From the IMG/VR virus record IMGVR_UViG_3300021376_000030, positions 1-64,000 of that record: a DNA stretch of 64,000 nucleotides. The stretch is one strand, 5' to 3'. Position 1 is the stretch's first letter; each line of letters starts with the position of its first letter. The stretch is from a virus. A program made the position numbers and the translations under genes. Below are positions 1,621 to 23,660 of this stretch, one piece after another. The notes beneath the pieces were generated by a model. That model was not told where the DNA came from. It did no database searches and worked only from the letters and a program-made list of their open reading frames with translations.

Positions 1621-1692
1621 AATTTATTATACATGAATTTAAAATAAATCAAGGGCATAGGCAAAAAAAGCATTTATTAAATTTTAATCAGC

Positions 1693-2370
1693 TCATATCT
1701 CGGGAAACAAGCAATTCTGAATGAATAGTTTAATATCTTCTTCATTAAGTCCTAATTTGGACATGACACGGGGTGTATGAGGATTTTCTTTTTGATTTAT
1801 AGCATAATAATTTTGAGCTGATGTAGAGTTTACCCCTCTATGGTTAGATACACCTACATGTTGCAAATAATATGAAGATGTGTCCTTTGCCATATGAAAA
1901 ATTTGATGTAATTCTGCTTCATTAGTGACATGACTAGCAGCCACCATGCTAGGGGAAAATATGCGATTAGCCCATGGGGGCAATTCTCTAACCTTGCGCC
2001 ATGAAAATTGCTTTACATATTCAGCAAACCAAATACACATGTCATGATTTTTATTCACTGTAACACTAAAATCATGAAAACATCCTGTAATAATATTTTT
2101 ACCAGCAATTACATCAAAACCAAATATGGGAGCATCATTATGTACATGAGGAAAAATACAACAATGCATCATCCAAAGACCTTTATCATCTCGAGCATCC
2201 ACAACATCAATATGCGCTCTACGATAATTATCAGATGTCCATACCCTGTTAATCCATCCTGGTTGATTAAATCGATCCATACCAGGTTCTTTTATCTCTG
2301 TACCAGAGCTTTGAAATTGTGTTTGCAACACATTTTGTATTTCAATAAGTGTATCCCAAATTTTACTCAT
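1693..2370 (-). CDS. ferredoxin-dependent bilin reductase, PcyA/PcyX-like
   Basis: RRAHIDVVD..LWMMHCCIFP...APIFGFDVIAG...GCFHDFS, RELPPWA.IFS, Q..NPHT.RVM..LG..CLFP motifs of the FDBR family. Confidence 0.85.
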   Translation of the reverse strand: MSKIWDTLIEIQNVLQTQFQSSGTEIKEPGMDRFNQPGWINRVWTSDNYRRAHIDVVDARDDKGLWMMHCCIFPHVHNDAPIFGFDVIAGKNIITGCFHDFSVTVNKNHDMCIWFAEYVKQFSWRKVRELPPWANRIFSPSMVAASHVTNEAELHQIFHMAKDTSSYYLQHVGVSNHRGVNSTSAQNYYAINQKENPHTPRVMSKLGLNEEDIKLFIQNCLFPEI

Positions 2371-2373
2371 TGT

Positions 2374-2381
2374 TATTTATA
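2374..2381 (-). promoter_or_regulatory. T4-type late promoter TATAAATA
   Basis: Exact TATAAATA 3 nt before the ATG of the bilin reductase. Confidence 0.6.
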
Positions 2382-2390
2382 AAAATTAAT

Positions 2391-4937: not shown

Positions 4938-5153
4938 ACTACTTTACATGGTCAAGATTAAATTAAAACCACGGATTGTCTAAATAACCTAAACTTACTT
5001 CATCTATTTTTCTTTGAGCTTCTATTAACTGTAATTGATTTATAGCATTTTTTAATAATTGAATACAATCTTTATGTGAGAGATTATTATTTTTTTTTAA
5101 TTTCAAAATTAAATCAATAATTGAATCGGAAGGCGGCACATAATATTTATAAT

Positions 5154-5226
5154 TGGGCCCACAAGGATTTGAACCTTGGACCAAGGCATTATGAGTGCCA
5201 CGCTCTGACCGCTGAGCTATAGGCCC
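5154..5226 (-). tRNA. tRNA with CAU anticodon, probably Ile2 (lysidine type)
   Basis: GGGCCTA/TGGGCCC acceptor, TGGCA-CTCATAA-TGCCT anticodon arm, GGTTCAAATCC T-arm; GGGCCTATAGCTCAG start typical of Ile2; no encoded CCA. Confidence 0.85.
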
Positions 5227-5285
5227 AATAAATTGATTATACTATAATTGTTGGAATGTATTAAAGGAAAAAAATTAAAAAAAAA

Positions 5286-5644
5286 ACATCCTTCTGCCGC
5301 GTTAATTGCACTGTATTCGAATTGTTTTGCTGTAACTTCCAGCTAAGTTAAGTGCTATCGGCCTATATACTTTGTTGATTGATTATCTATCAACTCAGCC
5401 TTAAAACGCGTAATACTAGTCTAGAGCGTCGTTCGTTTTACTGAACTTATAATATGAATTATCTATTATTATAATACGTTATAATATATAGGATAGTCTT
5501 ATGTTATTATGCTGCTATCTTTCATATACTCCTGCTTAAACAGATATATCTATCTGTGATCGCCTATGGGTCATGGCGTTGGACTATTCAGGATTTCCTT
5601 CGAGGTCCCAACCTTTACTTCCTGCAGAAGAGATGTCAATGAAC
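5286..5644 (-). ncRNA. candidate large structured ncRNA (~350 nt)
   Basis: No ORF in track; terminal helix ACAUC-U-CUUCUGC / GCAGAAG-GAUGU, at least 7 internal stems, upstream promoter, downstream U-run. Confidence 0.6.
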
Positions 5645-5651
5645 TATTATT

Positions 5652-5679
5652 AGTATAATATAACTAGAGATAGATGCAA
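5652..5679 (-). promoter_or_regulatory. sigma70-like promoter for candidate ncRNA
   Basis: TTGCAT-16 nt-TATACT followed by boxA-like GTTCATTGACA. Confidence 0.5.
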
Positions 5680-5743
5680 CTAGTTTTTTTATTTTTTTAT
5701 TTGGACGAAATAAAAATTACTCAATCCAATTCTTGGAATTTTA

Positions 5744-6076
5744 TTAATTTTTTCCAATATTACAATACATTACATCTGGACGAACACTGCACGGAACAAA
5801 GTCTATATGAACAATATCACCGGAATTAGTACGGGTTGAACCTAAATAAAACACAGTTGAATCCATTTTAAGCATCTCCCATTCTAGGTTGTACATTGTT
5901 ATTTTGACCAAAAACTCTTGTATTATTTTATCGTTTGATTTAATTTTAGGTGGTAAATCAAATTGCTTTAATAGCTCCTCAAGAGTATTTGGACCTGTTG
6001 AAGATTGTTTTGCTGGGCGACTAAATAGTTGCTTTATGAATGAGAAAATAAATGCCATAAAATCCCATACATCCAC
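5744..6076 (-). CDS. hypothetical protein
   Basis: 110-aa ORF; start uncertain. Confidence 0.45.
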   Translation of the reverse strand: MDVWDFMAFIFSFIKQLFSRPAKQSSTGPNTLEELLKQFDLPPKIKSNDKIIQEFLVKITMYNLEWEMLKMDSTVFYLGSTRTNSGDIVHIDFVPCSVRPDVMYCNIGKN

Positions 6077-6276: not shown

Positions 6277-6480
6277 TTAAACATTATAGATACCTTCAAC
6301 GCAGGGCTCAATAGCACTAAGATAATTGACAAGCTTTTCTTTATCTATCTTTGTTTTAAATCTTATCTCTATATCTTCAATAATATCGTTTAAAATATTA
6401 TTGTTGTTAACAATAGAAGTTAAAACCATTTCTAATGCTAAACTATTTGAAAATTCTCGAAGTGTAACCGGATTAGACAT
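6277..6480 (-). CDS. hypothetical protein
   Basis: ORF in minus-strand run. Confidence 0.5.
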   Translation of the reverse strand: MSNPVTLREFSNSLALEMVLTSIVNNNNILNDIIEDIEIRFKTKIDKEKLVNYLSAIEPCVEGIYNV

Positions 6481-6481
6481 A

Positions 6482-6646
6482 TTATAGCTCCTGAGAAATG
6501 TAGATTTGAGCGAGCATCACTCCTTCCGGAAGATTAGCTTCAGCAATAGTTTTTGCCTCCTCGTTATTGGAAGCAACAATCGATTTATAGCCTAGAAAGA
6601 TTTGTCCTTTTTTTCCAAATTCATACATTTCAAATAAATATTTCAT
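6482..6646 (-). CDS. 54-aa hypothetical protein
   Basis: Hand-translated MKYLFEMYEFGKKGQIFLGYKSIVASNNEEAK...; follows promoter TTGAGA-16-TATAAT at 6654-6681. Confidence 0.55.
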   Translation of the reverse strand: MKYLFEMYEFGKKGQIFLGYKSIVASNNEEAKTIAEANLPEGVMLAQIYISQEL

Positions 6647-23052: not shown

Positions 23053-23082
23053 TATTTTATAATTTTCATTTATTTTAAATGT

Positions 23083-23238
23083 ATGCATAACTTTTTAATC
23101 AATGTATTTTTTGTTGGTTGGATTGTTATTCTAGTTGGCTATGTATATTACAATTTTGCTTTCTATCTTACTCGACGTAAGAAGAATGGTGGAGGTGGCC
23201 CACGTTCGCGTGGACGCCCTGCTACTATAAACAAGTGA
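23083..23238 (+). CDS. 51-aa single-pass membrane micro-protein
   Basis: Hand-translated MHNFLINVFFVGWIVILVGYVYYNFAFYLTRRKKNGGGGPRSRGRPATINK. Confidence 0.5.
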   Translation: MHNFLINVFFVGWIVILVGYVYYNFAFYLTRRKKNGGGGPRSRGRPATINK

Positions 23239-23300
23239 GGTTTAGGGTGACCCTCTTAAGTAAAAACCCTATATTTTTTCGAATACGATAGGGGGCTTTT

Positions 23301-23391
23301 GCCTCCGTCGTCTAACTGGTTAAGACCCACGACTTATACTCGTGAAGCTCTAGATTTGGGCGCAATGTAGGTTCGAATCCTACCGGAGGTA
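23301..23391 (+). tRNA. tRNA-Ile(TAT) with long variable arm
   Basis: GCCTCCG/CGGAGGT, CACGA-CTTATAC-TCGTG, variable arm GCTCTAGATTTGGGC, GGTTCGAATCC. Confidence 0.85.
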
Positions 23392-23433
23392 GAAAAACCT
23401 TGCAAATAACAATAATTCTATTATTATAATTTT

Positions 23434-23583
23434 ATGGCTGGCAAAGGATCAAAACCGCGTAGTTGTTTTAGTAAGAAATTTAAAGATAATTTTGACGCAA
23501 TTGAGAACTGGGCTTCCAAAGAAAATAAAGAGATCAGAAATTATACCGTTAAAAAAGGTAAAAAAATTTACAAATACCCCTGA
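23434..23583 (+). CDS. 49-aa MAGKGSKPR-type phage micro-protein
   Basis: Hand-translated MAGKGSKPRSCFSKKFKDNFDAIENW... Confidence 0.6.
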   Translation: MAGKGSKPRSCFSKKFKDNFDAIENWASKENKEIRNYTVKKGKKIYKYP

Positions 23584-23584
23584 T

Positions 23585-23657
23585 GGCCCAGTATTCCAAT
23601 GGCAGAGAAAAACGACTTAAAATCGTTCAAGTGTCAGTTCGAGTCTGACTTGGGCCA
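23585..23657 (+). tRNA. tRNA-Leu(TAA) with short variable loop
   Basis: GGCCCAG/TTGGGCC, AACGA-CTTAAAA-TCGTT, GTCAG-TTCGAGT-CTGAC. Confidence 0.85.
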
Positions 23658-23660
23658 CAT

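Follow-up and report, generated by a model that had tools for sequence, protein, structure and literature searches.

A predicted RNA gene beside a phage tRNA gene

We examined the first 64 kb (the window) of the 84,919-base IMG/VR virus record IMGVR_UViG_3300021376_000030, which CheckV rates as 40% complete, and we describe here a predicted noncoding RNA (ncRNA) on its minus strand at positions 5277 to 5645. The window encodes a T4-type portal protein (Pfam Portal_T4, E value of 4.9e-100) that is only 30 to 32% identical to those of the nearest GenBank phages, which points to a distant, uncultured T4-like phage as the source. Portal relatives at 52 to 90% identity occur at 39 viral-contig loci. 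The genes surrounding the ncRNA locus are in the minus-strand orientation. Between the open reading frame (ORF) at 5744 to 6076 and a tRNA gene at 5153 to 5227, there is no minus-strand ORF of at least 30 codons. The first-pass annotation had called this the largest ORF-free gap, which is roughly correct: when ORFs of at least 60 amino acids are counted, positions 5185 to 5743 (559 nt) rank third, after a stretch at the window edge and positions 23053 to 23660, the latter with two tRNA genes.

Within this gap lies what is almost certainly the gene of a real structured RNA, about 369 nt from its predicted first nucleotide to the end of a U run, as placed by comparative evidence. An A-rich stretch precedes a putative −35 box (TTGCAT, 5679 to 5674), a 16-nt spacer, and a −10 box (TATACT, 5657 to 5652); this is the minus-strand promoter that had been proposed earlier, and its spacing predicts a start at the A at 5645. 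At the other end, a run of 10 U residues (5286 to 5277), also noted before, stands directly behind the closing helix Pa described below and is the likely transcript end. A consensus terminator scan found no local hairpin terminator at the end of the ncRNA.

Four of five long related viral records carry the stretch at 71 to 72% identity over about 430 nt, and further homologs came from exact-pattern scans with an invariant word. The scan of viral contigs returned 12 stretches (9 homologs and 3 chance matches), and the scan of metagenomes returned 72 (33 homologs, 16 members of an unrelated family, and 23 chance matches). Removal of duplicates and of six partial loci left 31 distinct full-length homologs of 345 to 369 nt, with pairwise identities of 0.61 to 0.99 (median, 0.72), all from uncultured viral or metagenome contigs of T4-like lake phages. 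A second pattern, taken from the 3′ half, added only three further loci in viral contigs, all close relatives. When 29 related viral records were searched with a covariance model of the 5′ core, 10 of them, among which is a 229,717-base record rated complete, proved to carry exactly one copy each; T4 gave no match. In addition, blastn of the region against 50,697 GenBank phage records gave no match, the flanking proteins used as single queries had no relatives in viral contigs, and among 185,579 prokaryote species, each represented by one genome, the pattern matched 14 stretches, none of them a homolog. Contigs from four sequencing runs, probably of DNA, contain relatives of parts of the stretch.

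The boundaries of the gene recur in the homologs. The pattern TTGNNN, 15 to 18 nt, TANNNT, 7 to 8 nt (6 nt in L125), and GTTC is kept in 28 of 31, with the ncRNA start 7 to 8 nt behind the conserved −10 box. Of these 28, 25 have a spacer of exactly 16 nt, and the three deviating homologs belong to one clade. All 31 have 7 to 11 T residues within the 12 nt behind Pa. The genes upstream and downstream, on the other hand, vary among loci. Upstream, 13 of 31 loci encode a small protein ending in FDRGQKIK; downstream, 11 of 31 encode one recurring protein (the L041 copy, the sole one scanned, matches PDDEXK_1 with an E value of 1.1e-6), and 7 have a fibre-like gene. By hand count, same-strand tRNA genes lie within 2 kb upstream at 16 of the 30 other loci, many of the loci being too short to tell. 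The varying neighbors, the kept promoter, and the T-rich tail argue for a self-contained gene with its own predicted sigma-70-type promoter and U run, often but not always located in a tRNA region.

One clade lengthens the ncRNA by about 70 nt. By eye, this extension consists of a short GC hairpin (GCGAACCGUGACGC) followed by a classical hairpin-plus-U terminator (L051:2224-2300 and the same place in L053, L065, L066, L069, L082, L084, L100, L102, and L118).

Compensatory changes across the homologs

RNAalifold, run on the alignment of the 31 sequences, gave 64 pairs, of which 36 had a compensatory change. Inner pairs of helix Pd, a pseudoknot, and a 2-bp element were added to these to make a model of 74 pairs in 14 helices. 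In this model, 99.0% of cells are paired across the homologs, compared with 88.2% ± 0.4 for shuffled controls and 30 to 38% when the partners were slid. Changes on both sides occur at 40 pairs and in 264 cells, and none of 500 shuffles reached either value; compensatory changes, the lack of which the first-pass annotation had said would speak against its proposal, are therefore abundant. The pairing is also strand specific. There are 150 G-U cells versus 8 A-C cells, and the model is 99.0% canonical on the minus strand versus 92.7% on the opposite strand. The excess of G-U over A-C therefore places the RNA on the minus strand.

Two points weigh against this picture. The fold of the single window sequence is unremarkable, with z scores of −1.96 (minus strand) and −2.77 (plus strand). 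Furthermore, the family is narrow. Every member was found through patterns that required invariant words, which makes the core look more conserved than it is, and homologs at a greater distance may have escaped. The case for structure is comparative, and the single-sequence fold is not decisive.

Architecture of the modeled RNA

The 5′ and 3′ ends of the molecule pair, as the earlier reading of the sequence had suggested. The closing (leader-trailer) helix Pa joins positions 5633-5624 to 5297-5289 (alignment helix 1); it has 9 pairs, 5 of which show both-side changes, and is 99.3% paired. Pa enters a first four-way junction together with the arm Pb-Pc, a core helix, and the arm Pf. The first of these arms (5590 to 5623) contains Pb (5623-5620/5593-5590) and the hairpin Pc (5615-5611/5606-5602), with both-side changes in 2 of 4 and 3 of 5 pairs, respectively. 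Between Pb and Pc is an internal loop, AGUA on one side and GAA... on the other, which may resemble the loop E (bulged-G) motif. The core helix pairs UAGUC (5586 to 5582), whose flanking words CUGAAUAGUCCAACGCC are invariant, with GACUA (5421 to 5417), which is followed by a conserved GUAUUA. It is paired in 31 of 31 homologs, and one of its pairs is U-A in 16 and U-G in 15, with C-G at that place in L149.

A second four-way junction lies within the core helix and takes in the hairpins Pd (5578-5561) and Pe (5558-5539), which together span 5539 to 5578 (alignment helices 5 and 6), and the arm Px. Pe has both-side changes in 8 of 8 pairs and an invariant GAUA loop. On this model, the RNA is organized as two stacked four-way junctions joined by the invariant 5-bp helix UAGUC/GACUA.

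The arm Px belongs to a middle domain (5423 to 5532) that also contains P4*, a variable interior, and the hairpin P6*. Px (5532-5528 with 5427-5423) was misaligned by MAFFT and was scored separately. In 30 of 31 homologs it forms 4 or more contiguous pairs, through 12 different strand pairs, which include GGGA/UCCC, GGAG/CUCC, AGAG/CUCU, GAGA/UCUC, and AAGG/CCUU, and it continues into P4* (5527-5521 with 5462-5452; alignment helices 7 and 8). P6* (5446-5443 with 5434-5431) is present in 19 of 31 homologs. The 3′ domain (5298 to 5410; alignment helices 9 to 13) begins with Pf (5410-5405 with 5303-5298; CGCGUU/AACGCG), in which 6 of 6 pairs show both-side changes. Inside it, Pg (5400-5398 with 5362-5360) contains a variable hairpin that is found in 31 of 31 homologs with unrelated sequences, and Ph (5359-5351 with 5312-5304) has in its interior the hairpin Pi (5343-5340 with 5332-5329). 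The loop of Pi pairs with an upstream strand in an H-type pseudoknot (UAACUU, 5350-5345, with AAGUUA, 5338-5333), and pseudoknot pair 334-342 is U-A in 21 homologs and A-U in 7.

The stems that the first-pass annotation had drawn fared unevenly against this model. Covariation supports CGCC-AUG/CAU-A-GGCG (Pd), CAGAUA/UAUCUG (Pe), and GCUG/CAGC inside GCACU/AGUGC (Pi and Ph), and GUUGAU/AUCAAC is the local form of the hairpin that occurs at that place in every homolog. The pairing AUAGUC/GACUAU, offered only as an alternative, turns out to be the core helix UAGUC/GACUA. GUUC/GAAC is kept in 19 of 31 homologs, and AUUAUAA/UUAUAAU appears in folds of the window sequence only, in a variable part of the RNA. 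Two stems were lost: GUUGG-G-AC/GUCCAAC clashes with the covarying hairpin Pc, and GACGC/GCGUU gives way to the pairing of CGCGUU with AACGCG near the 3′ end (Pf).

Searches for known RNA families

The ncRNA very probably represents a new family. Against Rfam 15 (4,227 models), the window gave six matches at gathering scores, all of them tRNAs. When positions 5100 to 5800 were searched at E values up to 10, STnc410 scored highest within the ncRNA, at 30 bits versus a cutoff of 50, and no family recurred at the ncRNA when 10 homolog loci were searched against Rfam. The absence of an Rfam match and the abundant compensatory changes thus support the earlier suggestion of an undescribed large ncRNA class. 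We found no description of this RNA in the literature; the supplementary candidate lists of PMC10690425 were outside the scope of that search and may include the locus.

ARAGORN found no transfer-messenger RNA (tmRNA) in the window, and RF00023 had no match in the ncRNA, in agreement with the lack of tmRNA ends seen at first reading. The GOLLD (RF02032) and ROOL (RF03087) models had no match at E values up to 10, and the Rfam scans list neither; the blank for ROOL is weak, as that search matched in no control genome either. An AUG in the junction before Px was considered as a specifier for tRNA(CAU) and was rejected, since the window sequence itself is without that AUG.

A boxA-like leader

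The first nucleotides of the ncRNA form a single-stranded 5′ leader, GUUCAUUGACA (5644 to 5634), that is boxA-like, as the first-pass annotation had remarked of the DNA word GTTCATTGACA at this place. The leader is near-invariant in the 31 homologs, with the consensus GUUC[A/U/G]UU[G/A]A[C/U]A from +2 to +12, and GTTCATTGACA is the sole match to GTTCNTTRAYA in the window. The published consensus GYTCTTTAANA, as presented in PMC5725501, was derived for gamma-proteobacteria. In rRNA operons, according to the account in PMC10250234, boxA precedes the leader-trailer helix; the leader of the ncRNA directly precedes the 5′ strand of closing helix Pa.

We suggest that the first 12 nt may recruit host NusB/NusE. 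Bound there, NusB/NusE would shield an untranslated transcript from Rho and would keep the 5′ strand in place for the later-made 3′ strand, so that the leader may aid folding. The likeness to an rRNA operon leader extends to the order of parts (promoter, boxA-like word, 5′ helix strand, structured RNA, and 3′ helix strand). The ncRNA differs in that its closing helix is only about 10 bp long, its boxA-like word departs from the consensus (G at position 8), and it shows no similarity to rRNA itself. Several observations count against a boxA function. Chance alone would be expected to place a GTTCNTTRAYA match in 64 kb of sequence (mean, 0.91), and 53 of 100 shuffles gave at least one. The leader agrees with boxA at 8 to 9 of the 10 specified positions, and this consensus is gamma-proteobacterial. 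The leader word therefore carries weight because it is invariant and well placed and not because the match is rare. We regard a role as boxA, recruiting NusB/NusE, as possible but rather doubtful. The leader was also considered as an antisense seed, an idea that was dropped, there being no complementary site on either strand of the window.

Self-complementary words in the 3′ arm

Two words in the 3′ arm, both predicted, or placed, single-stranded, are self-complementary. Word 1 (5369 to 5364, inside Pg) is UAUAUA in the window and UACGUA in most homologs. In 28 of 31 homologs its six nucleotides form a perfect palindrome (UACGUA in 24, UAUAUA in 3, and UUAUAA in 1); of the 234 windows of six ungapped alignment columns, no other is palindromic in 80% or more of the sequences. 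It occurs once in most homologs, without a second copy to pair with. Its central CG changes to UA, and adjacent bases are unable to pair within one chain. Covariation in word 1 thus keeps a single-stranded word self-complementary, adjacent bases included. Word 2 (5322 to 5315, inside Ph) is AUUCGAAU in the window and in 22 of the 31 sequences overall, UAUCGAUA in 5, and the imperfect forms GUUCGAAU in 3 and AAUCGAUA in 1. The pairs that flank it change on both sides (alignment helix 14), and its predicted unpaired probability has a median of 0.74, compared with 0.43 for the whole RNA. When a tree was built without the word columns, each word had its variant forms in two separate clades.

In the account of Kretsch et al. 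(Nature 2025, PMC12286853), palindrome-keeping double changes (GGCC to GAUC or AGCU) back symmetric intermolecular kissing bridges, the adjacent-base argument is applied to OLE L9.3 and GOLLD L21a, and the symmetric bridges of OLE and GOLLD are seen by cryo-electron microscopy (cryo-EM). The two words of the ncRNA covary as palindromes in the same pattern as in OLE and GOLLD, which makes symmetric homo-oligomers the likeliest mode of action, one that we favor only tentatively. We infer that the palindromic covariation reflects pairing between copies and, further, that the resulting assembly is the active form.

Several observations weigh against self-pairing. Word 1 is AACGUA in 3 of 31 homologs, and UAUAUA is a low-complexity sequence in an AU-rich RNA. 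L065 and L084 look recombinant between the clades, and the independent switches in word 2 may number one rather than two. The self-duplexes are short and weak, at about −6 to −7 kcal/mol, and word 2 could instead form a hairpin of 2 to 3 bp with a UCGA loop. Energies of −6 to −7 kcal/mol are usual for kissing contacts and leave room for other readings.

Proposed explanation and its alternatives

The ncRNA has its own predicted promoter, and its 5′ and 3′ ends pair and so close the molecule. We propose that it would be a folded particle that acts in trans and that it would serve neither as an antisense RNA nor as a leader or message. Pairing between copies, via the two single-stranded self-complementary words in the 3′ arm, would build symmetric dimers or larger assemblies of dihedral symmetry, of the kind solved for OLE, ROOL, and GOLLD. 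Taken as a whole, this explanation (a stand-alone ornate ncRNA of a new family, self-pairing included) seems to us evenly poised between right and wrong. A bolder form of it is unlikely but worth stating. In that form, the ncRNA would join OLE, ROOL, and GOLLD as a fourth natural class of particle that assembles itself from RNA only, and would be about half as large as they are, with the two words on two two-fold axes of a closed ring or cage, long-range closure chaperoned during transcription by Nus factors via boxA, and early expression beside the phage tRNA genes. An RNA of about 350 nt would then enclose or sequester a host or phage component during early infection.

The ncRNA is best filed as a small, new member of the ornate phage RNAs. 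Like GOLLD, ROOL, and OLE, it is a stand-alone, highly branched, pseudoknotted RNA; like GOLLD and ROOL, it is carried by phages, often with tRNA genes close by. In common with GOLLD and OLE, as these are described in PMC12286853, it has single-stranded words that stay palindromic through double changes. The same source reports ROOL and GOLLD as phage or prophage RNAs that are often near tRNA islands. However, the ncRNA is about 350 to 370 nt long, versus about 580 or more than 800 nt, it has no sequence or model match to the three RNAs, its secondary structure differs, and its multimer is a prediction. Another point of comparison is T4 itself, whose rnaC and rnaD are stable RNAs of the tRNA region, about 120 to 140 nt long and processed from the tRNA transcript. 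The ncRNA would likewise be a small stable RNA gene beside tRNA genes in a T4-type phage; it differs from rnaC and rnaD in having its own predicted promoter and about three times the size, and the 5′ core model finds nothing in T4.

The alternative that survives best, although we consider it improbable, is that the RNA is a monomeric scaffold or decoy that binds a host or phage protein, the palindromic words being protein or tertiary contacts. Binding sites would be available in the invariant junction around UAGUC/GACUA and in the loop E-like internal loop, AGUA/GAA, a type of protein-binding module. Moreover, the longest invariant run, CUGAAUAGUCCAACGCC, and also GACUAGUAUUA lie in or around the junction and outside the palindromes. 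On the other hand, no protein gene is consistently adjacent to the ncRNA. Mimicry of rRNA is not supported at the sequence level: local alignments of four to five homologs to the Escherichia coli rrn operon were no better than those of shuffled queries; blastn of the ncRNA against E. coli genomes gave no match, and by-eye likenesses to 16S rRNA (796-813) and 23S rRNA (2490-2545) were dropped, the pairing partners not being common to them. A decoy also leaves unexplained why adjacent bases of word 1 change together and keep it self-complementary.

Less probable still is a ribozyme whose core, possibly circularly permuted, would resemble that of group I introns or of RNase P, with UAGUC/GACUA as the catalytic or guanosine-binding helix. 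The size, the invariant junction bases, and the tRNA neighbors fit a catalytic RNA. AAUAGUCC and GACUAG resemble the group I S and R elements that form P7, with the hairpin after the first of them resembling P9. The shared features are a 5-bp helix, GACUA/UAGUC, with conserved flanks and then a hairpin, in likeness to P7, J8/7, and P9. However, the element order is reversed relative to the group I series P3-P4-P6-P7-P3′-P8-P7′, as the earlier note that the RNA lacks group I order had implied: the S-like word stands ahead of the R-like word, UAGUC lying 165 nt before GACUA. The 3′ strand of Px, in the place of the P3′ strand, lies on the wrong side, 5′ of GACUA, which leaves the helices nested and not knotted, without the P3-P7 pseudoknot. 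There is no exon context, as the RNA is bounded by a −10 box and a U run and the flanking genes are intact and variable. The group I model, RF00028, had no match at the locus and only one in the window's record (10.3 bits at 6400-6580), although it detected three T4 introns at 105.3, 40.3, and 35.7 bits; conversely, the 5′ core model found nothing in T4. As for RNase P, the closing helix, a hairpin, and GAAUAGUCC loosely recall P1, P3, and CR-I. Nevertheless, the bacterial model, RF00010, had no match in the window's record at E values up to 10, in a search in which 8 of 14 control genomes reached the cutoff. By eye, GAAUAGUCCAAC and GACUAGUAUUA do not appear to fit the consensus words of CR-I and CR-V, the conserved regions that form P4.

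A cis element, that is, a replication origin, a packaging signal, or the leader of a downstream gene, is very improbable. The locus does lie 5 to 7 kb from the start of four related contigs, in an AT-rich region with many inverted repeats. Against this, the pairing is strand specific (150 G-U versus 8 A-C cells), compensatory changes keep RNA helices between strands 300 nt apart, a conserved promoter stands in front and a U run behind, and the downstream genes vary, many with their own promoter-like sequence. A small protein or decayed gene is extremely improbable, even with stop-free stretches of 50 to 95 codons (mostly antisense) and a GGAG 5 nt before an invariant AUG: the antisense frame shifts between homologs, which marks the region as noncoding, indels are not multiples of three, GGAG and AUG both lie inside the covarying helices Px and P4*, and the peptides after the AUG differ in length and sequence (by eye in the window, L041, L043, and L044).

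Returning to the self-pairing particle that we favor, few RNAs are at once large, highly structured, and well backed by covariation, and every new class of them has led to new biology or structural principles. The ncRNA is compact enough for cryo-EM and chemical probing; its secondary-structure model is clear, its ends are defined, and the two candidate bridge sites can be tested. Should it multimerize, RNA-only quaternary assembly would not be confined to the very large GOLLD, ROOL, and OLE, and the ncRNA would be a minimal system for its study. The boxA-like leader would allow a direct test of whether phages borrow the host machinery of rRNA folding and antitermination. Finally, the ncRNA joins the still unexplained noncoding RNAs that T4-type phages keep beside tRNA genes.

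Neighboring genes and other observations

Downstream of the ncRNA in the window are a tRNA gene and then an epimerase gene. The tRNA gene (5153 to 5227, minus strand) was found by both ARAGORN, which labels it Met (CAT), and Rfam; the first-pass annotation had read it as tRNA-Ile2. It lies outside the ncRNA, 50 nt downstream. Between the U run and this tRNA gene is a promoter-like site at 5264-5236 (TTAATA, 17 nt, TATAAT; 10 of 12 matches), which suggests that the tRNA is probably transcribed separately.

Elsewhere in the tRNA regions, about 250 nt of the window (23053-23300) contain no ORF of at least 60 codons and lie directly upstream of a 93-nt tRNA-Ile(TAT) and a tRNA-Leu(TAA); another small RNA could be encoded there. 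At two homolog loci, the tmRNA model gave subthreshold matches about 360 to 500 nt upstream of the ncRNA (L096:259-359 and L093:1912-2014; 27.8 and 26.3 bits, respectively, versus a cutoff of 47), and these may represent small RNAs, tRNA-like in form, that are encoded in the tRNA region.

The starts of four related contigs (the window, G001, G003, and G015), one of which is rated complete, coincide in the genome to within about 1.6 kb, which may reflect either a true genome end or a tendency of assemblies to break there. The window also carries a bilin reductase gene (Pfam Fe_bilin_red, 1693-2370) that is absent at the syntenic place in the related records G001 and G003, whose sequence joins window position 1656 to 2382. 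This is therefore an insertion or deletion difference among close relatives.

The 16 metagenome loci set aside in the pattern scan, together with L135, share a 15-nt word with the ncRNA and were judged unrelated to it. They carry a near-identical GC-rich element found in many metagenome contigs and in one alphaproteobacterial metagenome-assembled genome, and the 15-nt word is common to this element and the ncRNA by chance. The loci are L064, L068, L073, L075, L077, L095, L106-L108, L113, L115, L116, L119, L123, L129, L130, and L135, and the copy in L108 lies next to group II intron domains.

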